A stretch of 64,000 bases of DNA, from positions 1-64,000 of the IMG/VR virus record IMGVR_UViG_3300044911_000835. The stretch is one strand, 5' to 3'. This document shows, piece by piece, positions 4,802 through 18,334 of the stretch. Positions within the stretch are counted from its first letter, which is position 1, and the number at the start of each line of letters is the position of its first letter. Source of the stretch: a virus. The notes under the pieces were generated by a model. That model was not told where the DNA came from, did not search any database, and saw nothing but the letters and a program-made list of their open reading frames with translations. The position numbers and the translations under genes were made by a program.

Positions 4802-4802
4802 T

Positions 4803-4875: not shown

Positions 4876-4908
4876 GATTTATTGTAGTACCACCACCGGA
4901 GACTTAAA

Positions 4909-5139
4909 TTGAAGTTTAAAACAAAACCTGTAGGTAAGTTTGTGTATGGCGTTGCAGCTTTTAACGGATTGGTCACCCAATATTGGGGTGATAGTTATAA
5001 AGATGCAGAGGATGCGTTTTACAAAAGCCATACAGCTACCCATCTTTATAAGATGGTAGGTTCAGTAAAAGAAGTAATTAAGGAAAATCAACGTCGTATG
5101 CGTCAACCAGGAGCAATTGCTCTAGCATTCGGCAAGTAA
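4909..5139 (+). CDS. hypothetical protein
   Basis: TTG start with GGAG RBS. Confidence 0.6.
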   Translation: MKFKTKPVGKFVYGVAAFNGLVTQYWGDSYKDAEDAFYKSHTATHLYKMVGSVKEVIKENQRRMRQPGAIALAFGK

Positions 5140-5146
5140 ACAATTT

Positions 5147-5220
5147 GGGGCTTTAGTTTAATGGGAGAACCACTGGTTTGCAACCAGTTAATAACAGTTC
5201 GATTCTGTTAAGCTCCACCA
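5147..5220 (+). tRNA. tRNA-Ala(UGC)
   Basis: GGGGCTT/AAGCTCC with G3-U70, TT TGC AA loop, ACCA. Confidence 0.93.
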
Positions 5221-5222
5221 AA

Positions 5223-5362
5223 TAATATGTTGCGTAGAAAAGACTTACTTCCACTTCTAATGGGGTTGTCACAGGTTCGAGTCCTGTATAAGGGACGGAG
5301 TCTCTTATTAGCTCAGTTGGTAGAGCACCTAAAATTCGTTTTTTCGACTTTTTCTCATATTA
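5223..5362 (+). ncRNA. yrlA: YrlA-type Y RNA (Y1) with permuted tRNA domain
   Basis: T arm (5271-5287) precedes a closed acceptor-like hairpin and the D arm TAGCTCAGTTGGTAGAGCA (5309-5327); lies upstream of a TROVE gene. Confidence 0.85.
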
Positions 5363-5371
5363 ACAAAATTC

Positions 5372-5461
5372 AGCAGTTGCGTATATAACAGTTACTTCCT
5401 CACCATCTAACGAGGGCCGCTTTGAGGGCGTCCCGTTTCTGTTATAGACTTTTTCTCTGCT
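5372..5461 (+). ncRNA. Y-RNA-like element Y2
   Basis: AGCAG TTGCGTA TATAACAG TTACTTC ... CTGTTATA GACTTTTTCT CTGCT. Confidence 0.75.
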
Positions 5462-5470
5462 TCCACTTAA

Positions 5471-5537
5471 TCCGCTGCGCTAATTCTAGTTACTTCATTT
5501 ATCGGAAATAAAACACTAGAATAACCTATTTCTCGGA
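5471..5537 (+). ncRNA. minimal Y-RNA-like element Y3 overlapping the Rsr RBS
   Basis: TCCG CTGCGCTA ATTCTAG TTACTTC ... CTAGAAT AACCTATTTCT CGGA. Confidence 0.65.
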
Positions 5538-5546
5538 GCTATACAA

Positions 5547-7067
5547 ATGTCAAAATTCAATCAAGCAAACACTTTAGCAAAAGCTTTTTCTGCTAATGGT
5601 AACCTTCAGTATGTTAAGCCTGAAAAAGAACAACTATATGAATTAGTTGTTAATACTCTTTACGGGCGTGATACCTTTTACGAAACCACTGATGCTAAAG
5701 CACAGCGACTTTCAGCTATAGTAGCTAAGCTCGTTGCGTCTAATGAATTCAACTTCCTAGCAAACTTGGCTGTGCACGCAAGGCATGAAATGAATGTGCG
5801 AAATATGCCAGTCATGCTAGTTGACCAGACTGTTAAAGCTTTGAAAGCTCAAGGTAAGAACTTTGCTGGAACTCGTACCCTTGTAAGCCAAGTTGTTGGT
5901 CGCGTTGACCAAATCACCGACTTACTAGCTTTACTAGGCGACAAGGCTAAAATGCCTATGGCGCTAAAGCGCGGGTTGAGTGATGCTTTTAACAAGTTTT
6001 CAGAGTACCAATTTGCCAAGTACAATCGTGCTGGTAAAGTTACTTTGAAAGACGCAATGCGTATCGTACATCCAGTTCCTAAGGATGTGGATATGTCTAT
6101 CCTTTTTGACAAGATCATGAAGGGTAACTTATCGACCCCCGATACGTGGGAAGTAGCACTATCTCGTGATGGTAACACCAAAGAAGTTTGGGAAGGCCTA
6201 ATCGACCGCAAGGTACTAGGGTATCAAGCTACTTTAAAGAATTTGCGTAACATGCTGAATGCTGGAGTTAGTGCAGACCATCAGCGTCAGGTTGCTAAGT
6301 ACATTGTTGACTTCGCCGCTTCTAGCAAATCACTACCATTTGAGTTTCTAGCTTCTATGGAAGCTATTAAGAGTCTTGGTAGTCAGATTCTCAACAATGC
6401 ACTTATTGAGGCTATGGATGCGTCCGTAGTTAACGTACCTTCACTAGGAAACAAAGTTCTAGTTCTACTAGATACTTCTGGTTCTATGGGATTTATGGAA
6501 GGGCGTGCAGTTAAGAACGCAAGCTTCTTGTCAGCAGTATTAGCAAGTGCTAGTAAGAACTGTGAGAAATTCACACTTATTAGTTTCGCTTCTAATGCTA
6601 GACGGCATACTATTAATACCTCAGAACGTGTATTTTCTACCTATGAAAAGCTTGTAAAAGCCAGTGGTGGTGGAAGTACAGATTTTCTTGCTGGATTAAT
6701 AGAGGCTACTAAGGACGGTGTGGAATATGATACAGTCATTGTCCTAACAGATAATGAAATGGATAGCTTTAAGCACTCCTACAATGTAGGTAACTTCCAG
6801 AAGCAGGCCACTAGAGTTATCATTGACTGTTCTGCGTCCGAAACTAGCATTGCTAGCCCCTATGCTGGGTGGCATCATCTTGCAGGTTGGTCACCTAATA
6901 TGTTCCGGTATCTTGATGCAGTTCGTGAAGGTACTTCGATGGTTGAGATGTTAAGTCAACCATTTTCTAGTATGCTAATGAAACGCGAACTAGCGTCTAG
7001 GCGCTGGTCTAGTAAAGAAGTACCTACTTCCAACGTACCGAAAGCTGGACTAACTCATAGCGATTAA
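5547..7067 (+). CDS. rsr: Ro60/Rsr-like TROVE-domain RNA-binding protein with C-terminal vWA domain
   Basis: AR.EMNVR, F..FSEYQFAKYNR, LKD.MR..HP.P, PDTWEV.LS, L.YQA.LKNLRN; vWA MIDAS DTSGSM, GGST, LTDNE. Confidence 0.93.
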   Translation: MSKFNQANTLAKAFSANGNLQYVKPEKEQLYELVVNTLYGRDTFYETTDAKAQRLSAIVAKLVASNEFNFLANLAVHARHEMNVRNMPVMLVDQTVKALKAQGKNFAGTRTLVSQVVGRVDQITDLLALLGDKAKMPMALKRGLSDAFNKFSEYQFAKYNRAGKVTLKDAMRIVHPVPKDVDMSILFDKIMKGNLSTPDTWEVALSRDGNTKEVWEGLIDRKVLGYQATLKNLRNMLNAGVSADHQRQVAKYIVDFAASSKSLPFEFLASMEAIKSLGSQILNNALIEAMDASVVNVPSLGNKVLVLLDTSGSMGFMEGRAVKNASFLSAVLASASKNCEKFTLISFASNARRHTINTSERVFSTYEKLVKASGGGSTDFLAGLIEATKDGVEYDTVIVLTDNEMDSFKHSYNVGNFQKQATRVIIDCSASETSIASPYAGWHHLAGWSPNMFRYLDAVREGTSMVEMLSQPFSSMLMKRELASRRWSSKEVPTSNVPKAGLTHSD

Positions 7068-7094
7068 TAAAAGGCCTTCGGGCCTTTTATTTTC
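7067..7094 (+). terminator. intrinsic terminator
   Basis: ATAAAAGGCC TTCG GGCCTTTTAT TTT. Confidence 0.85.
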
Positions 7095-7126
7095 TTCCTT
7101 TGCGCCAAACCCGCGAAATTCTTCAC

Positions 7127-7155
7127 TTGCTTAAAGTTGCTTAATACCGTATAAT
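7127..7155 (+). promoter_or_regulatory. sigma70-type promoter
   Basis: TTGCTT-17-TATAAT. Confidence 0.75.
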
Positions 7156-7184
7156 ATTATTTCTTTCTGAGAAAAGGAAACAAA

Positions 7185-7460
7185 ATGCAAATTCAATCAA
7201 CCATTACTATGGCTGACACTGTACTAGACTTTATGATGAACGATGAAAATATTATCGAATGGTTTGCTACAGATATGCTAACTGGTGAGTCGGATAGGGG
7301 TTTAGTAGATGCTGAGAATACAGACCTATTCTTTAAAGCAGTTTATATTGCACTATCTGGTGATGATACCTCTATCTCCACAGCAAAGTATGAAGAAATG
7401 GAACGCTTGCTAGGTTTTACAAATGAGAATTCACGGCATCCGGCTCGCTGGATTCCCTAA
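7185..7460 (+). CDS. hypothetical protein
   Basis: AAAGGAAACAAAATG start. Confidence 0.7.
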   Translation: MQIQSTITMADTVLDFMMNDENIIEWFATDMLTGESDRGLVDAENTDLFFKAVYIALSGDDTSISTAKYEEMERLLGFTNENSRHPARWIP

Positions 7461-7466
7461 CAATTT

Positions 7467-7543
7467 GGGCCTCAAGCTTAAGTGGTATAAGCGTCCGACT
7501 CATAATCGGTTGACACAGGGTTCGAGTCCCTGGGGGCCCACCA
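7467..7543 (+). tRNA. tRNA(CAU), probably Ile2 (lysidine type)
   Basis: GGGCC.. acceptor and CCGA-CT CAT AA-TCGG arm typical of Ile2; ACCA. Confidence 0.85.
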
Positions 7544-7549
7544 AATATT

Positions 7550-7625
7550 CCGCCGTTAGCTCAGTGGACAGAGCAGCAGGTTTCTACCCTGTAGGTCGGG
7601 AGTTCGACTCTCTCACGGCGGGCCA
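7550..7625 (+). tRNA. tRNA-Arg(UCU)
   Basis: CCGCCGT/ACGGCGG, TT TCT AC loop, GCCA. Confidence 0.92.
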
Positions 7626-7628
7626 TAT

Positions 7629-7689
7629 CTAGAAGTACTCGAATAGGTGAAAATCCTTGTAATTGAAATGTATTATAGAGTGCTTCTAG
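7629..7689 (+). ncRNA. small stem-closed spacer RNA
   Basis: CTAGAAGTACTC/GAGTGCTTCTAG. Confidence 0.4.
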
Positions 7690-7693
7690 CTAT

Positions 7694-7768
7694 GTCCTTG
7701 TAGTTCAATGGAAAGAATAAGGCACTCCTAAGGCTTTGATACAGGTTCGATTCCTGTCGAGGATACCA
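7694..7768 (+). tRNA. tRNA-Arg(CCU)
   Basis: cloverleaf, CT CCT AA loop, ACCA. Confidence 0.88.
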
Positions 7769-7777
7769 AATTTAAGC

Positions 7778-7837
7778 TTGAAAGAGTTGTAGAAACACTG
7801 TAAAATATCTTTTCTGAAATCGAAAAAGGAAACAAAA
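7778..7837 (+). promoter_or_regulatory. promoter/RBS cassette
   Basis: TTGAAA-17-TAAAAT plus shared block. Confidence 0.75.
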
Positions 7838-8089
7838 ATGAAAGTTTTTCTCGCACTTAGTGATAATGGTGATGGTTCCCAATCAATTAACTGGTTTAAA
7901 GATGTAACTATCGAACAGCTAGAGAAGCTAGAAGAAGATGACCCAGATACTTGGGGTAGTGGTGACGGTCTTCAGTATCAAGAACTAGACTTTCCAGATA
8001 ATTTTGATTTTGAAGCCCTTGGTGTACACTACTGGTCTACTTTGCCTACTGGTGATGAAGACGATGACGGGTTTGAAGAAGAGGAGTAA
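7838..8089 (+). CDS. acidic hypothetical protein
   Basis: D/E-rich; SDNGDGS motif. Confidence 0.7.
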   Translation: MKVFLALSDNGDGSQSINWFKDVTIEQLEKLEEDDPDTWGSGDGLQYQELDFPDNFDFEALGVHYWSTLPTGDEDDDGFEEEE

Positions 8090-8097
8090 GTAATAAG

Positions 8098-8171
8098 ACC
8101 ACGGTAGCTCAAAGGTAGAGCAAAGCCCTGATAAGGCTGAGACGAAGGATCGTTACCTTCTCGTGGTACCA
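8098..8171 (+). tRNA. tRNA-Ile(GAU)
   Basis: CT GAT AA loop, ACCA; variant T loop. Confidence 0.88.
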
Positions 8172-8183
8172 AGAATACTAAGT

Positions 8184-8258
8184 CTAGGCGTAGCTCAGCC
8201 AGGCCAGAGTCCTTGCTTTGGAAGCAAGTTGTCGTAGGTTCGAATCCTACCGCCTAGA
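8184..8258 (+). tRNA. tRNA-Pro(UGG), no encoded CCA
   Basis: CTTGC-TT TGG AA-GCAAG; acceptor extended by a 10-bp flanking stem. Confidence 0.88.
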
Positions 8259-8282
8259 CTTAGTATTTTGAAAGGAAATAAA

Positions 8283-8462
8283 ATGAATCGTCAAGCTATT
8301 ATTAAACTTCTTCAATCAAACCTATCAGATGAAGATGTTCTAGAAATTCTAGAAGATATTATCTGTAAAAAACAGAATAAGTACTTTAATACAGATATGT
8401 ATAGACCACTATACCAACCATGGATTACTCCAGCCTATAAAGTTGGAGAGACCAGTGTCTAA
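8283..8462 (+). CDS. hypothetical protein
   Basis: AAGGAAATAAAATG start. Confidence 0.6.
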   Translation: MNRQAIIKLLQSNLSDEDVLEILEDIICKKQNKYFNTDMYRPLYQPWITPAYKVGETSV

Positions 8463-8691
8463 AGGTTCTAAACAACGTCCTTGTCTAGTATCGGATTCGC
8501 AAATGCAATCAAATTGGGATAAAATCTTTAGTAAGTTTTACAAGGTTTATGTATGGCCCGATGGCAGCTGGATTGGTGAAGATGACCAGAAAGAGCTAGA
8601 AGAAGCAATGAATGAGTCAGATGACTTCTACATAGAGGAATTATCTGAAATTGAATATAATGACTTAGTTGAAGGAAGATTGATTCTATGA
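8455..8691 (+). CDS. hypothetical protein
   Basis: GTG start after GGAG; MSKGSKQRP N-terminus. Confidence 0.6.
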   Translation: MSKGSKQRPCLVSDSQMQSNWDKIFSKFYKVYVWPDGSWIGEDDQKELEEAMNESDDFYIEELSEIEYNDLVEGRLIL

Positions 8692-8882
8692 CTACGGATA
8701 CTTGGCATCCATGTTATAATGGAGCGCTTCCTAGTATTAATTCTTGTTGGATTCGCAAACTAGATAAGTACTGTTTGTCTATAATAGACAACAGTAGCCA
8801 TAAATATATACTACAATGTGGTGATGGTTCAAAAGTAGAAGTTACTAGAGACGACTTTATAAAGTCATTTTACCCTACATGA
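8688..8882 (+). CDS. hypothetical protein
   Basis: ATGA-coupled ORF. Confidence 0.55.
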   Translation: MTTDTWHPCYNGALPSINSCWIRKLDKYCLSIIDNSSHKYILQCGDGSKVEVTRDDFIKSFYPT

Positions 8883-8891
8883 GGAAAGATT

Positions 8892-9011
8892 ATGAGAAAT
8901 AAATTTGTTGTACATATGGTTGCACGAAAAAGTGGGCCTCATGGCAAAAGTAAAAAAGCTATGAGGCGTGCAGAGAAAGTCAAATTTAATGCGTCGGTAG
9001 CTCAATGGTAG
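8892..9011 (+). CDS. basic 39-aa peptide running into tRNA-Lys (not in ORF track)
   Basis: GAGGAAAG RBS; MRNKFVVHMVARKSGPHGKSKKAMRRAEK... Confidence 0.5.
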   Translation: MRNKFVVHMVARKSGPHGKSKKAMRRAEKVKFNASVAQW

Positions 9012-9066
9012 AAGCAAGGGACTTTTAATCCCGAGGTTGTGAGTTCAAGTCTCATCCGACGTACCA
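8991..9066 (+). tRNA. tRNA-Lys(UUU)
   Basis: GGGA-CT TTT AA-TCCC, ACCA. Confidence 0.92.
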
Positions 9067-9138
9067 TATTAAAGAACTCTAAATGTGAGACCCTTAACTT
9101 AGCCTGGTAGCTAAGCACTAGAGTTCTTTAATATGGTA
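9062..9138 (+). ncRNA. stem-closed RNA overlapping the tRNA-Lys 3' end
   Basis: 20-bp perfect inverted repeat TACCATATTAAAGAACTCTA/TAGAGTTCTTTAATATGGTA. Confidence 0.55.
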
Positions 9139-9249
9139 AAATCAATTAATTACATAGTAAAACATAAGTTTTACTTTATCTTTAGAAGTGTTGAAATGAT
9201 TACCTGTATATTTATTATATCAGGAGTTATTCGACATTGGTAGTATAAT

Positions 9250-9332
9250 GCGGGAGTGGTGGAACTGGTATACACAAGGGACTTAAAATCCCTCGCTTCG
9301 GCATGAGGGTTCGACTCCCTTCTCCCGTACCA
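9250..9332 (+). tRNA. tRNA-Leu(UAA)
   Basis: CT TAA AA loop, variable arm, ACCA. Confidence 0.93.
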
Positions 9333-9338
9333 AATAAT

Positions 9339-9412
9339 GAGAGCATGACCGATAGGCTAGGTGCTGGTCTGCAAAACCAGTTAGGTGAGTTCAATTCTCA
9401 CTGCTCTTTCCA
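9339..9412 (+). tRNA. tRNA-Cys(GCA)
   Basis: CTGGT-CT GCA AA-ACCAG, U73, CCA. Confidence 0.9.
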
Positions 9413-9422
9413 AGGATTAAAC

Positions 9423-9608
9423 ATGAAACAAGACCTGATTGAACGACTAGAGAAACGAGCAGAAATTCGAAGACAGATTTCTACTAGAAAATCTGTTCAG
9501 GAAGGGCAGCCCGATCGTATTGCCGATTTGTTAGAGGAAGCTGCGAAAGCACTCAGAGAGTGTGCTAAATACTCTGATGCGGTTCAGGCAGTAAGTAGGC
9601 TTATATAA
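9423..9608 (+). CDS. hypothetical phage protein
   Basis: start moved out of the tRNAs; RAEIRRQI..RKSVQEG.PDRIADLLEEAA. Confidence 0.7.
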   Translation: MKQDLIERLEKRAEIRRQISTRKSVQEGQPDRIADLLEEAAKALRECAKYSDAVQAVSRLI

Positions 9609-9612
9609 TAAT

Positions 9613-9698
9613 GGAAGGTTGGCGAAATGGTAGCCGCACGAGTTTGCTAAACTCGCGACCGAAAGGTCGTACAGGTTCAAGTCCTGTACCTTCCGCCA
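9613..9698 (+). tRNA. tRNA-Ser(GCU)
   Basis: TT GCT AA loop, long variable arm, GCCA. Confidence 0.93.
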
Positions 9699-9704
9699 TA
9701 CAAA

Positions 9705-9780
9705 GGAACTTTAGCTGATGTGGTCATAGCGGCGGTTTGAAGAACCGTTGAAGTAGGTTCGATTCCTACAGGTTCCACCA
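9705..9780 (+). tRNA. tRNA-Phe(GAA)
   Basis: GCGGT-TT GAA GA-ACCGT, ACCA. Confidence 0.9.
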
Positions 9781-9791
9781 AATTTTTAAGC

Positions 9792-9820
9792 TTGTTTCAT
9801 TTTGCTAAATCATCTATAAT
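9792..9820 (+). promoter_or_regulatory. sigma70-type promoter
   Basis: TTGTTT-17-TATAAT ATTATTTCT. Confidence 0.75.
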
Positions 9821-9846
9821 ATTATTTCTTATGGAGATTTAGCAAA

Positions 9847-10149
9847 ATGTGTAAGCAACACGTAGAAGCGACTATTTATAATAGCAAGGGTCACATTATT
9901 GCTAGGGCCAGGAATTCTTATACTAAGACGCATCCTCGTCAGGCGAAATTCGCTAAACTTGCGGACAATCCCCTGGCTATTTATCTTCATGCAGAAATTG
10001 CCGCGCTAGTAAAGTGTCGCCAGAAGCCACATAAAATTAGTATTGTGCGTTATATGAAAGATGGTACTACTGGTAATGCTGAGCCTTGCGGAATTTGTAA
10101 GTTGGCTATTAAAGAAGCTGGAATTAAATTTGTGGAGTATTCTGTATGA
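9847..10149 (+). CDS. zinc-dependent deaminase (CDA/dCMP deaminase fold)
   Basis: LHAE and EPCGIC motifs. Confidence 0.85.
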   Translation: MCKQHVEATIYNSKGHIIARARNSYTKTHPRQAKFAKLADNPLAIYLHAEIAALVKCRQKPHKISIVRYMKDGTTGNAEPCGICKLAIKEAGIKFVEYSV

Positions 10150-10358
10150 AAAAACTTTGGCTAGTTCGTGAACCTTGTACGGTCTTATTCGATGTAAAGC
10201 CAATTCACGAAGCTCTAGGAACAGAGAAAATGGATTCTAGTGTTGAGGTAGAATTAACTGACTATGAGTACTTTGAGTACGAAAGAGTAGTAATAGATTA
10301 CGAAAGGTGGCAAGCTCTATTAGCTTGCCTTATTGACCAAAATAATGGTAGCATTTAA
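10146..10358 (+). CDS. hypothetical protein
   Basis: ATGA-coupled ORF. Confidence 0.55.
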   Translation: MKKLWLVREPCTVLFDVKPIHEALGTEKMDSSVEVELTDYEYFEYERVVIDYERWQALLACLIDQNNGSI

Positions 10359-10632
10359 CAAATTAAATAAGCCCTCTGTACGTAAAGCCACTAGTAATGA
10401 GTACAAGCTAGCCCTTTCGTATAAAGGAGCACCTGGACTACCAGGTACTATAGCTGGACATATTTTAGCAGATAAATTGCTAACAGATAGACAGATAAAT
10501 GTGTTATTTTATGCTAAGAACAATGATATAGATGCTAGATGTAGAAGGTATTCTTATAGTCCAGGAGATGATTTTCATGAGTCCGATTACGAAATTGGGG
10601 CTTATGAACTTGTAGTAGATTGGGCCAAATAA
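10333..10632 (+). CDS. hypothetical protein
   Basis: ORF in operon; start may be ATG 10345. Confidence 0.55.
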   Translation: MTKIMVAFNKLNKPSVRKATSNEYKLALSYKGAPGLPGTIAGHILADKLLTDRQINVLFYAKNNDIDARCRRYSYSPGDDFHESDYEIGAYELVVDWAK

Positions 10633-10633
10633 A

Positions 10634-10722
10634 GGAAGATTGTCTAACCTGGGATGTTAGCCCTGTCTTGAAAACAGGTGGAGCCGAGAGGCCAAGAGTT
10701 CGATTCTGCTAGTCTTCCGCCA
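10634..10722 (+). tRNA. tRNA-Ser(UGA)
   Basis: CCTGT-CT TGA AA-ACAGG, variable arm, GCCA. Confidence 0.85.
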
Positions 10723-10744
10723 TCAAATTTAAATAGGAGAAATA

Positions 10745-10960
10745 ATGACTCAGAAATACCTTGATGCAATTAATTTTATAGCAAATGAAGCACCAGATGT
10801 AGAGCTAGGTGCTGGGGGAGTAATTAGATGGGCTGAGCCTATTTGTGAACTTCTAACCTTTATTTATGATAAAGACTATGATGAGGTTACAGAAGATCTA
10901 TACGAGGCTATTAAAGAGGCTCAAGATATAGATGACGAGGATGAAGAAGAAGATTTTTAA
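10745..10960 (+). CDS. acidic hypothetical protein
   Basis: AGGAG RBS; acidic tail. Confidence 0.7.
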   Translation: MTQKYLDAINFIANEAPDVELGAGGVIRWAEPICELLTFIYDKDYDEVTEDLYEAIKEAQDIDDEDEEEDF

Positions 10961-10962
10961 GC

Positions 10963-10991
10963 TTGTTTTTTGATGTTGGATAGCGTATAAT
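10963..10991 (+). promoter_or_regulatory. sigma70-type promoter
   Basis: TTGTTT-17-TATAAT. Confidence 0.7.
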
Positions 10992-11015
10992 GTTTCTTTC
11001 ACTGGAGATATTAAT

Positions 11016-11150
11016 ATGTTTATTTTAGATCAGATTCATGCGCGTGAGTTTTCAACCGAGTTCATTGAACTTATGGATAATGCTTATTTTGAGCTATTCA
11101 AGGATACGTTCAATGCGGATGCTTTGCTAACTCACTTCTACTTTACTTAA
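11016..11150 (+). CDS. 44-aa protein (not in ORF track)
   Basis: GGAG RBS; MFILDQIHAREFSTEFIELMDNAYFELFKDTFNADALLTHFYFT*. Confidence 0.6.
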   Translation: MFILDQIHAREFSTEFIELMDNAYFELFKDTFNADALLTHFYFT

Positions 11151-11162
11151 GGAGCACCTACT

Positions 11163-11489
11163 ATGACCGTTATTAATACTTTTTATGTAGTTAAAAGTAT
11201 GTCCCCTACAAGAGTAGTAGAATACTTAGCTACAGATTATAATTCCGGTGGTTATTTCTATTGGACAGGTGTATTTAATAATAGTACTAAGTTTACTGAT
11301 AAAGCTAAACTTCCTAACCTTAAAAATACTTCTTATTTAGCTACTAACTCTGATGTAGAGTATTTAGAAGTGACTACTAATATTATTAGTAAATTTACTT
11401 TTGAAGACTTAAAAGCAAAAGAACTTGCTGAGAAAATAGCATCTCTGGAAGCTGAGTTAAAAGAACTTCGAAATTCTGTACTTGTTTGA
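11163..11489 (+). CDS. hypothetical protein with C-terminal coiled coil
   Basis: AAGGAG RBS. Confidence 0.7.
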   Translation: MTVINTFYVVKSMSPTRVVEYLATDYNSGGYFYWTGVFNNSTKFTDKAKLPNLKNTSYLATNSDVEYLEVTTNIISKFTFEDLKAKELAEKIASLEAELKELRNSVLV

Positions 11490-11510
11490 AGATGTAAAAC
11501 GATTTATAAT
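11482..11510 (+). promoter_or_regulatory. sigma70-type promoter driving a non-coding region
   Basis: TTGTTT-17-TATAAT ATTATTTCT. Confidence 0.75.
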
Positions 11511-11516
11511 ATTATT

Positions 11517-11960
11517 TCTGAAATGGAAAAGACCTCACGATGTAGAGACCAGTGTGAGAATGTGAGCTTATAGTGGGTGATCTGGTACGCACACTATGTT
11601 TTTCAGAATAAAAAAGAGTGCCACACGATTCTAGTGAACTTGGAAATTTGCTAGAAAGTGCAAATTGGCGAAAAAATACTTGTGCATGTGTAGCGACATA
11701 AGTATTCTCAATTCAAGCGCACTAAGCAGCTATGCTGATGAAAATAGTACTGGTATGTAATACGAGTCCAAGCTCTGATTGCATTACTGGTGGCCGTTGA
11801 CTACCTATTTAATGAGTCAGCCCTTTAGCGACGTTTTGGGGTTATAAACTTCGCAGCCGCCCTGAGCTTAAGAAGGAAACTGTTCATCTAACAGGTATAA
11901 TTGATGACATAGAAGAAATGGGAAATCTAAAAACAGGTACAAGCCCTGGATTGATTAACG
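11517..11960 (+). ncRNA. large orphan structured RNA candidate (about 440 nt)
   Basis: own promoter, no ORF, nested stems (AATACTTGTG/CATAAGTATT, AAGCTC/GAGCTT, GGTGGC/GCCGCC). Confidence 0.55.
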
Positions 11961-11973
11961 TAGTATTCTGTGT

Positions 11974-12063
11974 GGAGCGTTTGATGCTATGGTGTGTGCA
12001 TCGGTGGACTGTAAATCCATCCCCTCTGGGTAAACATTCTTGGTTCAAATCCAAGACGCTCCA
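11974..12063 (+). tRNA. tRNA-Tyr(GUA), no encoded CCA
   Basis: GTGGA-CT GTA AA-TCCAT; acceptor extended by flanking stem. Confidence 0.87.
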
Positions 12064-12090
12064 CAGAGAATACTAAGAAAAGTAACTCTA

Positions 12091-12212
12091 CTATTTGTAA
12101 TAACCTCTATATTGGTCGGAGATCGAACTCTCCGGTGAAGGTGTGAGAGCCTTCAAATGGTCTTCTAAATAGAACCCAGCCAATTCCTCTCACTAGAGGT
12201 TATTACAAATAG
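12091..12212 (+). ncRNA. orphan multi-hairpin RNA cassette
   Basis: 19-bp perfect terminal stem; internal hairpins; GTGAGAG/CTCTCAC possible pseudoknot. Confidence 0.6.
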
Positions 12213-12295
12213 GGCGAGTGGTGGAATGGTATACACGCTGGTCTTAGAAACCAGTGCCGGAAGGATTGAGAGTTCGAGTCTCTCCTCGCCCACCA
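12212..12295 (+). tRNA. tRNA-Leu(UAG)
   Basis: CTGGT-CT TAG AA-ACCAG, ACCA. Confidence 0.93.
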
Positions 12296-12297
12296 AT

Positions 12298-12416
12298 TAT
12301 AAGTGCTTATATATTGAAGTGCACTTCGGATATATAATCTGAGCTAGGGAATCTTAGTACATGCGTGACTAGCCAACCAGACTTAGGGTGCTGGGTGAAG
12401 TAACTAAGAACTTATA
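12298..12416 (+). ncRNA. orphan stem-closed RNA cassette
   Basis: TATAAGTGCTTA/TAAGAACTTATA ends; internal hairpins. Confidence 0.45.
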
Positions 12417-12442
12417 TACCAATTGACTTAAAAGGAAATAAA

Positions 12443-12769
12443 ATGACTAAGTATCACCCTGATTCTTGGGTAATTCTAAAGATTACCAATGAAGGTGTTA
12501 CCTACTACAAAGTCTTAGCTGGTTGGTACGGTGGTTATACTAACGGAGATTCGTGGCAGATTAATTCCGGTATTACTAGTGTAGATAAAGTAGATGGTAT
12601 ATATGAGTTTTATGGATATTCTGGTTCTGTTTATTTCTGTAATGAGAAAACAGAACGATTAACAGGACTTACGGCTAGTATACTTGAATCATACCAGAAA
12701 GACATGGAAGGTATTGGTGCTTCTATGGAAGTTGTACCTGTTTCAGAAGTAATGTTTTATTTTCAGTAA
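12443..12769 (+). CDS. hypothetical phage protein
   Basis: PD.WV...YYKVLAGWYGGY..GDSWQINSGI...GYSGS.Y.C motif-rich ORF. Confidence 0.75.
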   Translation: MTKYHPDSWVILKITNEGVTYYKVLAGWYGGYTNGDSWQINSGITSVDKVDGIYEFYGYSGSVYFCNEKTERLTGLTASILESYQKDMEGIGASMEVVPVSEVMFYFQ

Positions 12770-12777
12770 AGATTAAA

Positions 12778-12852
12778 ACTCCGTTCGACTTCAGGTGAGG
12801 TCACCACCCTTTCAAGGTGGCTAGAGGGGATCGTTACCCCTACGGAGTACCA
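12778..12852 (+). tRNA. tRNA-Glu(UUC)
   Basis: CCACC-CT TTC AA-GGTGG, ACCA. Confidence 0.9.
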
Positions 12853-12860
12853 AATTCGTT

Positions 12861-13160
12861 ACTTAAGCCTAGTGCTTAAGTTGTAAGTCTAAATTGAAGA
12901 GGTTGAGACAGGGGTTCGATTCCCCTCACCTACAAAGACGATGTGGGTGTCTTGGGTTCGATCAGCGTTGGATATCTAGACTGAGAATCGGCAATGTAGA
13001 AGCCGTAATGTAAGTGCTCTGCAACAGCAGGTCAATTCCTTTGTTGTTAAAGCTTACGAAGAAACAAAGCATTTTAAATGCAAACGACGAAGTATACGCT
13101 ATCGCTGCCTAAGCTTTAGCTGAGGTTTTGAGACTGTTCCTTATTACCCAATACAGTCTC
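12861..13160 (+). ncRNA. ssrA: circularly permuted (two-piece type) tmRNA
   Basis: T arm and acceptor 3' strand (12910-12934) precede the acceptor 5' strand GTGGGTG (12943-12949, G3-U70); tag ORF 13080-13112 = ANDEVYAIAA*. Confidence 0.88.
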
Positions 13161-13267
13161 TATTAGTTAGTACTTTGTGACGAGTTAGTACACAATGAGT
13201 ACGTAGGCATACGTACTACTTGGATGTACTCGGTAGTCAGCGGCCGCAGCAAAGTATTAACTAATAG
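13160..13267 (+). ncRNA. orphan stem-closed RNA cassette
   Basis: CTATTAGTTAGTACTTTG/CAAAGTATTAACTAATAG; inner AGTACGT/ACGTACT. Confidence 0.55.
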
Positions 13268-13340
13268 TATACTAATGTAGCCCGCGACCTGTGCACAGGT
13301 GTAGGAACAGCGGTTGGCAGCTAAAACCAGTTAGTATACT
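13266..13340 (+). ncRNA. orphan stem-closed RNA cassette
   Basis: AGTATACTAA/TTAGTATACT; GC-rich inner stems. Confidence 0.45.
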
Positions 13341-13362
13341 TTCTAATTTTTACTAGGATAAC

Positions 13363-13827
13363 ATGAAAACACTTAATATAAAAGAAATAACAGAATACTT
13401 AGCTAATGAACCGTTAGAGTCTAATGTTTATATTGGTGTAGATTCTGAGCGTTATAAAGATAAAGGTAAGTGGTTTGCTGATTATACTGTTGCGGTAGTT
13501 ATTCACCGTAATGGTAACAATGGTTGTAAAGTATTCGGCGGAATTGATACTGCTCAAGATTTTGATAGCAAATCAAATAAACCTATGATGCGTATGATGA
13601 ATGAAGTTTATCGTGCATCAGAAACTTATCTAGCTCTAGCAGAACTTTTAGTAGATCGTCATGTTGAAATTCACTTAGATATTAATCCTAGCGAATTGCA
13701 TGGTTCTAACTGTGCTATGCAACAAGCTATTGGGTATATTAAAGGTGTATGTGGTCATACACCTAAACTTAAGCCGGAAGCATTTGCGGCGTCTTATGCT
13801 GCTGATAGATTGAAGGAATATATTTAA
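13363..13827 (+). CDS. YkuK (DUF458) family RNase H-like protein
   Basis: YIGVDS, RMMNEV, EIHLDIN, KPEAFAASYAAD. Confidence 0.88.
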   Translation: MKTLNIKEITEYLANEPLESNVYIGVDSERYKDKGKWFADYTVAVVIHRNGNNGCKVFGGIDTAQDFDSKSNKPMMRMMNEVYRASETYLALAELLVDRHVEIHLDINPSELHGSNCAMQQAIGYIKGVCGHTPKLKPEAFAASYAADRLKEYI

Positions 13828-13833
13828 ATTAAT

Positions 13834-13909
13834 TGCTCTATAGTGAAGTTGGTTATCACACCAGATTTTGAATCTGGTATCTTTGGTTCGAATCCAAATA
13901 GGGCTGCCA
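13834..13909 (+). tRNA. tRNA-Gln(UUG)
   Basis: CCAGA-TT TTG AA-TCTGG, GCCA. Confidence 0.9.
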
Positions 13910-13915
13910 AATAAT

Positions 13916-13989
13916 GTCTCACTAGTGTAATGGAAGCACGGCGATCTCCAAAATCGCAAGCCGAGGGTCGGTACCTTGGTGGGATGCCA
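13916..13989 (+). tRNA. tRNA-Trp(CCA)
   Basis: GCGAT-CT CCA AA-ATCGC, GCCA; variant T loop. Confidence 0.87.
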
Positions 13990-13998
13990 GTATTAATA

Positions 13999-14064
13999 AG
14001 GTGAAAAGGGTAGCTCCCCTGATAGTGCTCAATCCACTATCTAGCCTAAGAGTTCGATTGAGGA
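13999..14064 (+). promoter_or_regulatory. HNH leader RNA motif, copy 1
   Basis: three-way junction AGGT-GAAAA-GGG/CCC-CT-GATAGTG/CACTATC-TA-GCCT; loop CTCAATC pairs with GATTGAG at the RBS. Confidence 0.65.
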
Positions 14065-14071
14065 ATAAAAG

Positions 14072-14647
14072 GTGTATAGAGAAATAAAAGAAGAAGAATT
14101 GAAGTTAGATAAACAGAGAGGTTATTTATACTTCATTGATAAAGATCACCCTCTTAAAACTGGAAATGCCTCCTACGTTTTTCTACATAGGCACATGGCC
14201 TCTATAAAAGCAGGCTACTGGCTATCTAGTAAGGAGCATGTTCACCATATAGATGAGAATAAATTAAATAATTCTCCAGAAAATCTACACATATGTTCTG
14301 CTTCTGAACACGGTAAGTTACATAGTGCGCATTTATGTATAGAAAAACTCTGTAAACAGTGTGGAATACTTTTTAAGCAAAAAGAGTCTACACAACTATT
14401 TTGTTCTACTGAGTGTAGTAGCAAGTATAGAGTTTTACTAGATGGATTAACTAAGGAAGAATTAGAACACTTATTATGGACTACTAATTATTCTGAACTA
14501 GGAAAACAATTTAAATGTAGTGATAATGGTATAAGAAAGTGGGCGAAAAGACTTAAATGTACAGTACCTCCTGCATACTTCCATAGTAAGGGCTACTCTG
14601 TAGAAAAGAAATTATCAATGTATTTAGAAATTAAAGAAAAAGGATAA
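14072..14647 (+). CDS. HNH homing endonuclease
   Basis: YVFLHR, HVHHIDENKLNNSPENL; CxxC...FCSxxC zinc finger; C-terminal HTH. Confidence 0.9.
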   Translation: MYREIKEEELKLDKQRGYLYFIDKDHPLKTGNASYVFLHRHMASIKAGYWLSSKEHVHHIDENKLNNSPENLHICSASEHGKLHSAHLCIEKLCKQCGILFKQKESTQLFCSTECSSKYRVLLDGLTKEELEHLLWTTNYSELGKQFKCSDNGIRKWAKRLKCTVPPAYFHSKGYSVEKKLSMYLEIKEKG

Positions 14648-14651
14648 ACGA

Positions 14652-14918
14652 ATGACTAAAGCTGTATATTGTTCACAAATGGTAGATTATGAAGGTATTG
14701 TAGAGGAAGATATTGGCTTTTTTGTAGAGGGTAATCGTTTCGAGTTTAAAGTAGACGTATATGAAGATATGATTACTTTCCGAGACTGTTTAGGCCGTTT
14801 CGTACCAGTTGACATTACTCAAATTGATCAAGTTATTGATGCTTTAGTTACTGCTAGGTCTTTGATGCTAGTGCCTATGGCTCCAGATACTTATGTTGAA
14901 TCTGATTTGGGTTGCTGA
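14652..14918 (+). CDS. hypothetical protein
   Basis: AAGGA RBS. Confidence 0.65.
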   Translation: MTKAVYCSQMVDYEGIVEEDIGFFVEGNRFEFKVDVYEDMITFRDCLGRFVPVDITQIDQVIDALVTARSLMLVPMAPDTYVESDLGC

Positions 14919-15114
14919 ACAGTTAGAATCTGAACCACCCCAAATACTTGAAGAATTTCAAGGATTTGAGGTAATAGTAGAGCTTAATGACCCATCCCAG
15001 TATTTTTCTAAGTACCAAATTTGGGCAGAGATAGAAAAGCTGCTAAAGCAAGCCCCTATTAAAGATAGATTAAATACAGTAGAGTACGTGAAAAACAAGT
15101 TGAAGAATTTTTAA
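14893..15114 (+). CDS. hypothetical protein
   Basis: ORF in operon. Confidence 0.55.
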   Translation: MLNLIWVAEQLESEPPQILEEFQGFEVIVELNDPSQYFSKYQIWAEIEKLLKQAPIKDRLNTVEYVKNKLKNF

Positions 15115-15115
15115 C

Positions 15116-15144
15116 TTGTTTTTTTAGTTTAAAGCCTCTATAAT
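15116..15144 (+). promoter_or_regulatory. sigma70-type promoter
   Basis: TTGTTT-17-TATAAT. Confidence 0.75.
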
Positions 15145-15174
15145 ATTATTTCTGAGTTTGAAAAAGGATTTGAA

Positions 15175-15369
15175 ATGACTTTTTGGAAAGTTCCTGGTCA
15201 ACTATTAATTAATGTATTATGTGAGATAATTCAAGCAAAGTTACTAGGCTTTGAAAAGCTCGCAATTGAATTTAGGCCTGAATTAGAGAACCAGTTGTTT
15301 TCTAGGGGATTTAAAGTTTCTACTATTAAACTTCCTAATAATTATTACACTGTGGTGGATCTAAAATGA
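15175..15369 (+). CDS. hypothetical protein
   Basis: behind promoter and RBS. Confidence 0.6.
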   Translation: MTFWKVPGQLLINVLCEIIQAKLLGFEKLAIEFRPELENQLFSRGFKVSTIKLPNNYYTVVDLK

Positions 15370-15575
15370 AAGTAGGTACTTGGGTTCAGTTTGAGAATGA
15401 AAATAAACCTATAGGTTATATCATTGGTAAAAAAGAGCATAAGTATCAGCTTAGACCAACATCTAAAGAATTGATTAGAACTAACCTACATGAACTAGAG
15501 TTTGATGTAGATGGTTATGCTACTGAGTATGAACGCAAGAATAAGATCAATCGTATCATAGAATTTCAAGCTTGA
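15366..15575 (+). CDS. hypothetical protein
   Basis: coupled ORF. Confidence 0.6.
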   Translation: MKVGTWVQFENENKPIGYIIGKKEHKYQLRPTSKELIRTNLHELEFDVDGYATEYERKNKINRIIEFQA

Positions 15576-15600
15576 TACGCAGTTCAATATTCTGTATAAT
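15572..15600 (+). promoter_or_regulatory. sigma70-type promoter driving a 1-kb non-coding region
   Basis: TTGATA-17-TATAAT. Confidence 0.8.
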
Positions 15601-15618
15601 ATTGTTTATGAAATCGAG

Positions 15619-15788
15619 AAAGGTTTCATAAAGCACACTAGAAGGGTACTTAACCTACTAATCGACGGATTAGTAGCCTATGTGAGAGAACCCTTTAATA
15701 GGGTTAGGGTCACTATCAAACCGGCCGGCATGATACAAATAGGTGGTTAAACAGGTTCGATTCCTGTAGTGTGCTTTATGAGACTTTT
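15619..15788 (+). ncRNA. tRNA-like RNA with T arm and large internal domain
   Basis: about 20-bp terminal stem including GCACACT/AGTGTGC; T arm ACAGG TTCGATT CCTGT; TTAACC/GGTTAA helix. Confidence 0.65.
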
Positions 15789-15789
15789 G

Positions 15790-16425
15790 CGTACTGCTCT
15801 ATGATGCGGAGTACCAGTTGTCACAATAGACCGGAGGTTTAGCGTGCTCAAGGTAATATCCCAACATACATTAGTATTACTAATGATTACGTGAAAGTTT
15901 TATATAACGTCCAGGCTAGGACGCTAAACCAAGCGGACTGTTTATAGAGGTCGTCCGTAAACTACTATACATCATTTTATCCTGATGTTAAACGGATAGG
16001 GTACATAGGCGTTGGAAGCGAAATGTACCTAATAAGGTAAGGAAAGTAAACGGAGGATGGGAGCTAGTGAAACGTACTGGAACCTTATAGCAGATACCCC
16101 ACCGGCCTTAGAAATTGATAGTGAACTTAAGATAGCTATCGCCCTTTGTCAGAGTAGGTTAAAAACTGAAATCTTACTTAAATGAGGGCCAGTAAGTGAT
16201 AGTTATTTTGCCCATAACTGGAACCTGGCTTAGGTAGAATGTCGCAAATTCTACACTGTAGGAAGTTCGTAATGAAAGTTGTTAGTACCAAGAACTATAA
16301 ATATCGTTGAACTATCAGTCTTATAGTACTAGTAGACTTAAAACAACTAGGAAATTGGCTTCCCGAGTATGATAGTAAACTGCTCCGACCTTACTAGAAG
16401 TCGTTAAACTAGTACCCAGTATTCT
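15790..16425 (+). ncRNA. large orphan structured RNA candidate (about 630 nt)
   Basis: no ORF; dense stems e.g. GGTTTAGCGT/ACGCTAAACC, GGTACAT/ATGTACC, ATAAGGT/ACCTTAT, GTAGAAT/ATTCTAC, AGTTGTT/AACAACT. Confidence 0.65.
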
Positions 16426-16426
16426 A

Positions 16427-16508
16427 GAGTGCTGTGGTTAGGGCAGTTAGGTAACTAACAGGTTAAGACTCCGGTGTGCCCGGACGAGCTGCTCTAACCA
16501 CAACGCTC
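16427..16508 (+). ncRNA. orphan stem-closed RNA
   Basis: GAGTGCTGTGGTTAGGGCAGT/GCTGCTCTAACCACAACGCTC with two inner hairpins. Confidence 0.55.
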
Positions 16509-16609
16509 CCGTATATCAATTGGTATTGATGCTTTCTGATTCCACTATATGGATAATGTCTTTGACAAGTTAGTATCAATTCCACAACATTCTAATAAAA
16601 GGATTTAAT

Positions 16610-16807
16610 ATGCGTAAAAAACTATTAAGGTCTTGTGGATGTAGAACTTGTATGCGGGGCAGGCGTACCGCATATGGCCATGTAAGGTTACATCAAGCGG
16701 AAAAGCAGCTAAGACAACAATCTAGAATTAATATTGATAAAGCTATAAAAGGTAATGACCTAGATTTAATTGACATTATCGAAGTTTCTACGGATTACAC
16801 AGACTAA
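16610..16807 (+). CDS. small basic protein with CxCxxC
   Basis: AAGGA RBS. Confidence 0.65.
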   Translation: MRKKLLRSCGCRTCMRGRRTAYGHVRLHQAEKQLRQQSRINIDKAIKGNDLDLIDIIEVSTDYTD

Positions 16808-17415
16808 TGCAAATTATTTCACCTTTTAAAGATTACTATGATGTAGGTATGCAATATGGTTTCGACCCCAAATTGCAATGGATTAGGCGTACTTCTGACA
16901 TTGAGGAGTCTAGTCGCTGGCATCATTCTGAATCAATTATTCTACATTTTTGTGGTAAGACTTATAGAGGTATAGTTGTAAAGTCCGCTTCCTACTACAT
17001 TAATAGTATGGAAGTAATTTGGGATAATGAACACTACGATAAATATTGTACAGAAAATAAGGTAAAACCCTTAGAGATTAGTTGGCTAGATAAGTTTTGG
17101 ATAACTACTAAAGTTAGACCTAAATCCAAGATCATACAGTTAGGACTAATTGGTGAGTCTGACATTTTAAATGATAAATATAGTTCTCCGGTAATTTTAC
17201 AAACTAATAAAGGACTAGAGATTAATCCTTCCTTGAAGTTTATTCAGTTTTATAAAGTCTATGACCCAGTAACTACATATCAAAAAATTAGTGAATACTT
17301 TGGTAACAAGTTTTTTAATGAACCTAAAATGGTTCCAATTTCAGATAAAGATAGGATTAAACAACATGGATTTACTAAAGAAAGTTTCCGTATGGCTAAG
17401 TCCAGCAATAAATAG
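16807..17415 (+). CDS. hypothetical phage protein
   Basis: MQIISPFKDYYD start and HGF..ESFR end. Confidence 0.75.
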   Translation: MQIISPFKDYYDVGMQYGFDPKLQWIRRTSDIEESSRWHHSESIILHFCGKTYRGIVVKSASYYINSMEVIWDNEHYDKYCTENKVKPLEISWLDKFWITTKVRPKSKIIQLGLIGESDILNDKYSSPVILQTNKGLEINPSLKFIQFYKVYDPVTTYQKISEYFGNKFFNEPKMVPISDKDRIKQHGFTKESFRMAKSSNK

Positions 17416-17464
17416 CTTTCTAATTATGTACTGGTTTAGCCTAGAGTGGCTTAAAGATAAATTT

Positions 17465-17539
17465 GCTTCGTTAACTCAGCGGTAGAGTAACTCCTTTACA
17501 CGGAGAAGGTCGGCGGTTCAATCCCGTCACGAAGTACCA
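17465..17539 (+). tRNA. tRNA-Val(UAC)
   Basis: TT TAC AC loop, ACCA. Confidence 0.93.
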
Positions 17540-17556
17540 ACTAATTAAGGATTTGA

Positions 17557-17808
17557 ATGGAATTTGATATTGAGATTAAGAAAACTACCTATGATAGGGT
17601 TCGCTTAAATGACGAAGATATTAAGAAGGTAGTTTTACACTATATTAGTCGTAAGTATAATATCCGTAAAGATGATTGGGTTGCAGAAGGTGACCTTACA
17701 CGTGAGGTTGAATACCATGGATCTCACAGTTGGTTTGAGCAAGAAGTTATTAGAAAAGTAACTGATTTCGATGTTGCATTACTAACACTTCTTAGAGAAT
17801 TAAAATAA
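17557..17808 (+). CDS. hypothetical protein
   Basis: AAGGA RBS. Confidence 0.7.
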   Translation: MEFDIEIKKTTYDRVRLNDEDIKKVVLHYISRKYNIRKDDWVAEGDLTREVEYHGSHSWFEQEVIRKVTDFDVALLTLLRELK

Positions 17809-17812
17809 TATT

Positions 17813-17886
17813 GGCTCTATCGTATATAGGTATTACCTCGGATTGTCTATCCGAAGAACACAGTTCGAATCTGTGTAGAGTCGCCA
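17813..17886 (+). tRNA. tRNA-Asp(GUC)
   Basis: TCGGA-TT GTC TA-TCCGA, GCCA. Confidence 0.9.
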
Positions 17887-17894
17887 GGTTAAAT

Positions 17895-17970
17895 AGTAAC
17901 GAATGCAATTAGGTGAGCAGCTTGATTCATAATCAAGTGCTATTCGGTTCGAGGCCGAGCGTTACTACCA
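17895..17970 (+). tRNA. tRNA-Met(CAU), probably elongator
   Basis: CTTGA-TT CAT AA-TCAAG, ACCA. Confidence 0.78.
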
Positions 17971-17973
17971 AAT

Positions 17974-18035
17974 TAACTACTAGAGTTAAGCGCGTTAACT
18001 TAATAAGCAGCGGTCGGTAAGCTTTCTAGTAGTTA
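17974..18035 (+). ncRNA. small stem-closed RNA
   Basis: TAACTACTAGAG/TTCTAGTAGTTA. Confidence 0.4.
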
Positions 18036-18129
18036 CCACAAGTAGGCTTCACTTCCTTATCTGCTTCCAGCTGATTAGCTCGTACCTGGAAGTACGGGCG
18101 GGATAAGAGTAAGGAAGCCTACTTGTGGT
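18035..18129 (+). ncRNA. long irregular hairpin overlapping the tRNA-His 5' end
   Basis: 16-bp ACCACAAGTAGGCTTC/GAAGCCTACTTGTGGT; inner CTTATC/GATAAG and CTTCCAG/CTGGAAG. Confidence 0.55.
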
Positions 18130-18200
18130 CGTAACTTAACAGGCAAAGGCTCTGGCTGTGAACTAGAGAGATGCGGATTCGACTTCCGTCGATCACCCCA
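18124..18200 (+). tRNA. tRNA-His(GUG)
   Basis: GTGGTCG/CGATCAC, C73, CCA; -1 base is U. Confidence 0.87.
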
Positions 18201-18257
18201 ATAATTTTCGGTCAGCGCCGAACCAACCAAACTGTCAAGATTAAATAAAGTCACGCA

Positions 18258-18334
18258 CGGCCGTTAGTTTAACTGGAAAGAACCTATGCATACGAAGCAT
18301 AGAAATGTACGTTCGAATCGTACACGGTCGGCCA
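18258..18334 (+). tRNA. tRNA-Arg(ACG)
   Basis: TATGC-AT ACG AA-GCATA, GCCA. Confidence 0.87.

Follow-up and report, generated by a model that had tools for sequence, protein, structure and literature searches.

A candidate modular non-coding RNA of ~620 nucleotides and a conserved phage RNA motif in the tRNA island of a T5-like phage

Genomic setting of the non-coding gap

The window considered here, i.e., the whole 64,000-nt stretch of DNA that was analyzed, derives from a 77-kb IMG/VR virus record with a T5-like gene content that includes a central tail fibre, a family-A DNA polymerase and SbcCD. DNA of this phage occurs in the lake-water metagenomes of many studies, with at least 16 lake metagenomes containing the gap described below, and in freshwater metatranscriptomes. 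A tRNA island with 23 tRNAs predicted by ARAGORN extends from 2205 to 18334 and surrounds the gap at 15576-16609 that is the subject of this report; a tmRNA of the permuted type lies in the same island (Table 1), and an orthologue of Ro60 with TROVE and vWA domains is encoded at 5547-7067. The genes that flank the candidate RNA are all on the plus strand.

An earlier note on this DNA had described a non-coding stretch of ~1 kb behind a near-consensus promoter, and both descriptions are borne out. The largest ORF in the gap is no longer than 42 aa and, with the standard code, as used by the genes on either side, the longest stop-free run is 57 codons; hidden coding under other genetic codes was rejected by a scan of stop-free runs. 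The promoter departs from the sigma-70-type consensus at a single position, and promoter-like sites are, in total, no more numerous in the region than in shuffled sequences. One variant in lake DNA lacks 93 nt (31 codons, in frame) at 15400-15494, within a small ORF at 15366-15575. A gene for an RNaseH-like protein (phrog_11311/PF04308) lies at 13363-13827 of the window, 2.2 kb upstream of the RNA module that we refer to below as motif b.

Table 1. Positions of predicted features in and around the gap, and of base pairs that vary among natural relatives
Feature	Position	Strand	Basis and remarks
Permuted (two-piece type) tmRNA	12880-13112		78 bits; within the phage tRNA island
Sigma-70-type promoter, TTGATA-17-TATAAT	15572-15600	+	11/12 matches; heads the non-coding unit
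Leader hairpin, 11-bp stem	15605-15632	+	MFE; predicted transcript start; local z = -4.97 for 15581-15700
Putative tRNA mimic	15630-15777	+	From sequence; 10-bp closing stem AAAGCACACU / AGUGUGCUUU abutting the T-arm
Candidate stable RNA, ~620 nt	15791-16414	+	RNA contigs; no ORF
Module A, optional, 119 nt	15788-15906	+	Skipped in a DNA variant; local z ~ -2.6
Module B, four hairpins	15907-16030	+	15908-23, 15933-58, 15978-98, 16000-29
Motif b, conserved phage RNA module	16031-16112	+	Covariation, model R1
Domain D	16113-16425	+	Consensus fold with L030, insert left out
Domain D, hairpin	16116-22 / 16135-41	+	L030 comparison
Domain D, long-range helix H1	16148-57 / 16380-89	+	L030 comparison
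Domain D, helix X (alternative to Y)	16162-68 / 16316-22
Domain D, helix Y (alternative to X)	16317-21 / 16334-38
Optional expansion, 146 nt	16170-16315	+	Missing in L030; nested at the tip of helix X
Domain D, hairpin	16346-68
Domain D, terminal hairpin	16392-97 / 16409-14		GUCG in loop
3' clamp hairpin, ~15-bp stem	16427-16508	+	GAGUGCUGUGGUUAG / CUAACCACAACGCUC; local z = -3.73
Extra segment	16509-16585	+	Missing in L030 (alignment); CCACAAC repeat at both bounds
Pair change, strain B	15982:15994		C:G to U:A; compensatory, module B
Pair change, strain B	16063:16091		G-C to G-U; pair kept
Pair change, strain C	16064:16090		C:G to U:A; compensatory, motif b
Pair change, L030	16320:16335		CG to GC; compensatory
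Pair change, L030	16346:16368		AU to GC; compensatory
Pair change, L030	16116:16141		UG to UA; pair kept
Pair change, L030	16155:16382		UG to UA; pair kept, in helix H1

Comparison to known RNA families

Lying beside tRNA genes in a T5-like phage, the gap has the type of location that is typical of GOLLD, and the earlier note was right that GOLLD and ROOL are phage RNAs encoded near tRNA islands (PMC12286853). The comparison to Rfam that the note had proposed as a check matched neither. A cmscan of all Rfam 15 families with permissive filters over 1.2 kb (15500-16700) gave no match to the gap at E <= 10, and none was obtained at this threshold for the 121 nt around motif b or for the copy of motif b in Ralstonia phage RSP15. 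The ROOL model (RF03087), searched on the whole 77-kb record, had no match at E <= 10, as was also the case for the control genomes; for GOLLD, the all-family scans yielded nothing at the gathering score or at E <= 10. Neither ARAGORN nor Rfam detects a tRNA, tmRNA or Y RNA within 15790-16425, and the one tRNA-like element that we recognize lies outside this interval, at 15630-15777.

These null results bear on the idea that the RNA is a GOLLD or ROOL so divergent that covariance models miss it, which we consider highly improbable. The context of phage tRNA island and lake water is the same, and GOLLD has a variable 5' half and a linker that can carry tRNAs (PMC12286853), but permissive filters across the gap and its borders, and the ROOL model across the entire record, brought up nothing. 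Likenesses to GOLLD in general character are evident: it too is large and non-coding, is encoded by phages and prophages, frequently next to tRNA islands, came to light in lake metagenomes and has a variable and a conserved part; tRNAs may be attached to it (PMC12286853). Many GOLLD members exceed 800 nt, however, whereas the RNA described here would measure ~620 nt, only a 75-nt module of it is conserved and there is no known family of full-length homologues. ROOL is likewise a large RNA of phages and prophages near tRNA islands, and is itself highly expressed, but RF03087 comprises 574 positions with multiple pseudoknots, and we see neither shared sequence nor a shared pseudoknot pattern here.

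RNA coverage in freshwater metatranscriptomes

In two small freshwater metatranscriptomes from one study (X17 and X18), RNA contigs lie only on 15792-16232 and 15885-16412 at depths of 76-350, figures to be read with the understanding that the runs on 15300-16800 are assembled contigs, from which ends, strand and level are not readable. This is nearly the same interval that the earlier note had delimited from the letters (15790-16425), with bare flanks: no contigs were found on 15378-15791 and 16413-16800, an absence that is no proof in itself. The 5' stop of the cover at 15792 adjoins a branch point between variants at 15787/15788, which by itself would be able to end a contig. The ends of the covered span coincide with the terminal hairpins of the candidate RNA (at the 5' end GUACU, 15791-95, with AGUAC, 15810-14; at the 3' end 16392-16414), as well as with the borders of the two flanking elements, the tRNA mimic and the clamp hairpin. 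The restricted cover hints, if weakly, at a discrete RNA between the 5' tRNA mimic and the 3' clamp. In a second RNA study (X6), the cover is continuous, includes the flanks and extends into the downstream genes.

Flanking elements and folding energy

The putative tRNA mimic is built around a canonical T-arm (ACAGG-UUCGAUU-CCUGU) that is directly adjoined by the closing stem and that resembles the T-arms of true tRNAs within the window. A branched insert replaces the anticodon arm, CCA is not encoded, and the element is called by neither ARAGORN nor Rfam. The minimum free energy (MFE) fold shows long-range pairing of 15633-49 with 16410-33, for which the close relative L030 (see below) is without the 5' partner; as a separate observation, the 5' strand of the mimic's stem has this alternative pairing with 16410-16433 open to it. 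We infer that the mimic is a processing signal that frees the 5' end of a large RNA. The 3' clamp hairpin is outside the RNA-covered interval, and in L030 the base of its stem is retained while the interior is replaced.

A match to the T-arm of the mimic at 17 of 18 positions lies at 5271-5288, just upstream of the Ro60 gene; judged from its sequence, this site fits a tRNA-like Y RNA of the YrlA type.

Thermodynamics alone do not distinguish the interval from shuffled sequence. For the plus strand of 15790-16425 the MFE is -160.8, versus -154.7 +/- 8.1 for shuffles (z = -0.75), and for the minus strand z = -0.15; the interval, which had been called densely paired, is by this measure no more so than chance would have it. 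A value of z = -6.0 is reached for a 916-nt stretch, to which the hairpins on either side (15581-15700 and 16421-16540) are the main contributors. Ten or more helices can be traced in the interval, in line with the roughly ten that had been claimed, and the motifs from which a terminal pseudoknot had been proposed are in place (CGAC at 16386-89, GUCG at 16400-03, UACUAG at 16392-97 with CUAGUA at 16409-14). The unconstrained MFE misses the fold of motif b that covariation proves. Helices drawn from a single sequence are therefore unreliable here, and we place weight only on those that are supported by comparison.

Modular organization and variation

The comparisons depend largely on one close relative from a metagenome scan, contig L030, which starts inside motif b and encodes a flanking protein that is 92% identical to its counterpart in the window. 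The two DNAs are 85-93% identical over 16095-16169 and 16316-16439. The other relatives from the metagenome scan are too distant, and the gap is shared by none of the viral-contig relatives found by way of the flanking proteins (L025-L029). Apart from motif b, no homologues of the gap were detected in 2.9 million viral contigs, in 50,697 phage records or in the other gaps that carry the motif.

Variation among close relatives takes the form of whole blocks. One DNA variant, from run X12, passes straight from 15787 to 15907 and so omits module A, in which GGUUUAGCG (15835-43) is complementary to CGCUAAACC (15922-30); RNA variants have different sequence upstream of 15885 and 15907, and another variant among contigs of a lake DNA run joins 16437 to 16498. 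In module B, the hairpin at 15978-98 has undergone a compensatory change, and the other three hairpins are predicted from sequence and MFE. The 146-nt expansion of domain D contains candidate kissing hairpins (GGGC, 16186-89, with GCCC, 16210-13). In L030, which is without the expansion, the same stem closes on a 3-nt loop, which places the block at a hairpin tip, and it is at hairpin tips that large structured RNAs acquire expansions. Helices X and Y have 16317-21 in common, and the data fit either.

Since two blocks are dispensable in close variants, no single 620-nt fold can be obligatory. Sequence comparison shows the RNA to be a mosaic of swappable structured modules. The suggestion in the earlier note of a new class at ~630 nt is not supported in that form: L030 alone has more than 80 nt in common with the window here, close variants may have or lack the blocks at 15788-15906 and 16170-16315, and what is conserved across phages is the 75-nt module, usually by itself. 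None of the modules recurs elsewhere in the window, and the notion that they are multi-copy mobile elements was rejected on these grounds.

Pairing retained through natural variation

Among the natural variants we count four compensatory double changes and three single changes that preserve a pair (Table 1), with no broken pair outside the optional insert; inside it, the strain-B changes at 16213 and 16250 break predicted pairs. Several of the helices that had been noticed in the interval thus retain their pairing in strains B, C and L030. Between domain D and L030 there are 18 substitutions, 14 of them in unpaired columns, and all four changed pairs still pair. The covariation as a whole comes from two to three near-identical sequences, and the consensus fold itself rewards covariation, for which reason the structural evidence is real but thin. 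Helix H1 spans ~240 nt and encloses ~220 nt, including the site of the insert, which argues that this part is one domain and not a row of small hairpins.

The proposed terminal CGAC/GUCG pseudoknot is conserved in L030 without covariation, and its CGAC is also part of the 3' strand of helix H1, a competitor that is supported by comparison. A search with a gapped pattern for the pseudoknot hairpin returned 101 hits in viral contigs, which were dismissed as chance, as none had the stem or any blast similarity. Taken as a whole, the structural observation in the earlier note is real in part and its interpretation right in part.

Motif b

The first external match to the gap was a stretch of 74 nt, unannotated, in the tRNA region of Ralstonia phage RSP15, and blastn of the gap against the 50,697 phage records found nothing beyond it. 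The motif has been located in RSP15 and Vibrio phage 1.121.O, both of them cultured, and on 21 viral contigs; exact occurrences of its 20-nt core are present in 22 viral contig stretches. A single match was found in 185,579 prokaryotic genomes, on a 2.7-kb MAG contig, so that motif b is all but restricted to phage DNA. Its ~25 invariant bases are maintained in phages of beta- and gamma-proteobacteria as well as in uncultured phages, in which the GC content of the motif regions ranges from 39 to 62%.

The fold consists of a closing stem P1 (16033-37 / 16106-10 in the window; 5-7 bp among members), a purine-rich junction of 13 nt (UAAGGAAAGUAAA), P2 (CGG.A.GG / CC.A.CCG), an AU bulge, P2b (GG/CC), an internal loop and a variable hairpin. 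Members of the family (model R1) have the covarying closing stem, the invariant junction GGAAAGUAAAC, P2 and the 3' strand GAUACCCCACCGR, and the window copy has them all; it scores 69.3 bits against model R1 (E 2.5e-18), versus 70-80 bits for other members. Over 17 distinct sequences, 97% of the cells are paired and seven pairs have changed on both sides. The covariation score of 0.431 was equalled by none of 500 shuffles, and with the register slid it did not exceed 0.10. In P2, a G-C pair is replaced by A-U in Vibrio phage 1.121.O and by C-G in the divergent second copy of L007.

Of known phage RNAs, the antiterminator put of HK022 invites comparison with motif b; it has ~70 nt in two side-by-side stem-loops and lies immediately 3' of an early promoter (PMC9378689). 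Like motif b, put is short, works in the direction of transcription and precedes a variety of genes, and its stem I forms a triplex (PMC9378689), as the purine-rich strand of motif b could also do. But motif b is a single nested, irregular hairpin that also occurs between tRNAs far from promoters, and identity with put was rejected on account of the covariation-supported order P1-P2-P2b-P3, which makes one nested hairpin. The core is highly conserved, and no ribozyme or riboswitch in Rfam matches it. Three other candidate roles were discarded: a partnership with Ro60 (which is absent from two complete motif-bearing phages), a gene-specific operator (the downstream genes are unrelated) and mimicry of an E. 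coli RNA (no similarity was found).

Motif b occurs in three kinds of setting, always in the orientation of the flanking genes. In L003, L006, L012, L014 and L019 it occupies a slot between tRNAs, a few nt from each, and the filling of single tRNA slots in this manner is one reason for considering the main rival reading of the gap, namely that modules A and B, motif b and domain D are a row of independent small RNA genes that are co-transcribed and cut apart like tRNAs, with no functional molecule of 620 nt. The gain and loss of blocks between close variants, as of tRNA genes in arrays, and the fact that motif b alone is common to other gaps would also be in keeping with separate small RNAs. 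We nevertheless rate such a row as rather unlikely. The RNA contigs of X17 and X18 bridge every module boundary at similar depth; standard RNA-seq libraries usually lose pieces shorter than 150 nt, and the covered interval would hardly have been recovered in such pieces while the 150-nt tRNA mimic was not; and helix H1 encloses other elements, with the 146-nt block nested in a hairpin and not set side by side with its neighbours.

In L007 (twice), L009, L010 and RSP15, motif b lies 13-38 nt upstream of the start codons of ORFs; three of these ORFs were scanned against PHROGs and matched no family, and the ORFs downstream of other copies include a small terminase. This second setting recalls a leader, and one might propose that the gap is a transcribed spacer in which only motif b is functional, acting in cis on downstream processing, stability or antitermination, the remainder being drifting filler with helices due to chance or recent common descent. 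The constant orientation, the RNA cover that in X6 runs into the downstream genes, the lack of a thermodynamic signal over the interval and the mosaic content all speak for a spacer. Filler would not be expected, however, to keep all four of the changed pairs intact between the window and L030 with 14 of the 18 substitutions in unpaired positions, or to include a compensatory change in module B as well. In the window, moreover, the next ORF is 500 nt away from motif b, and in the tRNA slots there is only a tRNA downstream to be regulated. We hold the spacer to be an unlikely account of the gap.

The third setting is inside ORF-free gaps of ~1 kb or more, as in the window, in Vibrio phage 1.121.O and in L009/L015. 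Motif b is the only sequence that the large motif-bearing gaps have in common. In L004, L008, L009 and L015, a second covarying helix precedes it, ~100 nt upstream (UGAGGA/UCCUCA versus UGGGGA/UCCCCA, plus a variable hairpin), and the conservation of this extra helix implies a larger, two-domain RNA in that subgroup. The gap in Vibrio phage 1.121.O (L141 2157-3534; MG592495.1 140232-141609) is unannotated, free of ORFs over ~1.25 kb and ends with a strong intrinsic terminator near 3397-3424 (L141), apart from which no structured-RNA signal was detected in it; related Vibrio phages share it only piecewise. Here a cultured phage may harbour a further mosaic non-coding unit.

Several further observations were made on the neighbourhoods of motif b. 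On the minus strand of L007, copies at 2696-2785 and 3937-4012, one of them divergent (33.5 bits), flank a gene whose 370-aa product has Cys-rich motifs and an acidic tail; a start codon follows each copy after 26-38 nt. In L019, a tRNA-like sequence that has a T-arm and ends in CCA, not called by ARAGORN, is directly downstream of the motif, at ~4300-4385 on the minus strand. In L140, a gene of the same RNaseH-like family as in the window (phrog_11311, PF04308; 1642-2121) lies 12 nt downstream of motif b, and relatives L026-L029 have the RNaseH-like protein (phrog_11311) and no motif b.

Interpretation and significance

The preferred reading, in which we place about as much trust as doubt, is that the segment from 15791 to ~16414 specifies one stable, processed, multi-domain non-coding RNA of ~620 nt that belongs to a new family and is neither GOLLD nor ROOL. 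In the corresponding scenario, the host RNA polymerase would start at the promoter at the head of the gap, tRNA-processing nucleases would recognize the tRNA mimic and free a 5' end near 15790, and the 3' end would be set after the terminal hairpin, by cleavage at the clamp, or by both. These steps are conjectural, but the mosaic make-up of the body is shown: partly optional 5' hairpins, then motif b and then a 3' three-way domain that is closed by the long-range helix and that tolerates the 146-nt expansion at the tip of one hairpin.

Motif b is likely to be the functional core. The persistence of ~25 invariant bases in such diverse phages argues for docking onto a conserved host or phage component, or onto a ligand. 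Our best guess, suggested by a neighbourhood of tRNAs, tmRNA and the Ro60/Y-RNA set, is that the RNA might act in trans, serving as a decoy or a scaffold while translation or RNA surveillance is taken over.

Two other systems provide partial parallels. The tRNA cluster of phage T4 encodes stable RNAs that are not tRNAs, species 1 and 2 (rnaC and rnaD), which are co-transcribed with the phage tRNAs and released by tRNA-processing enzymes; they are only ~120-140 nt long and are not known to be modular. In eukaryotes, the MALAT1-mascRNA pair has a tRNA-like element 3' of a long non-coding RNA, and in such an arrangement the nucleases that process tRNAs may set one end of the long RNA. In our case, the element lies 5' of the long RNA, and its processing is presumed.

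A more far-reaching reading would make the ~620-nt RNA the founding representative of a new class of giant phage RNAs that are abundant and modular. Its conserved core, motif b, would then be a novel fold that is catalytic or that binds a ligand or a molecular machine (e.g., a ribozyme that processes itself, or a decoy directed at a conserved host factor of translation or defence), and many unrelated large phages would deploy it alone in tRNA slots or within larger scaffolds. We regard this extension as improbable.

The large structured RNAs that reside in phage tRNA islands, such as GOLLD and ROOL, are among the most striking RNAs that lack an assigned function. The candidate RNA would add an unrelated example, encoded by a phage that recurs across many lake metagenome studies. 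Its mode of evolution, in which close strains swap whole structured modules, is unusual. The more solid gain is motif b, a compact, strongly covarying and phage-specific RNA module that is absent from Rfam; because two phages that carry it, RSP15 and Vibrio phage 1.121.O, are in culture, its function is open to bench experiments.
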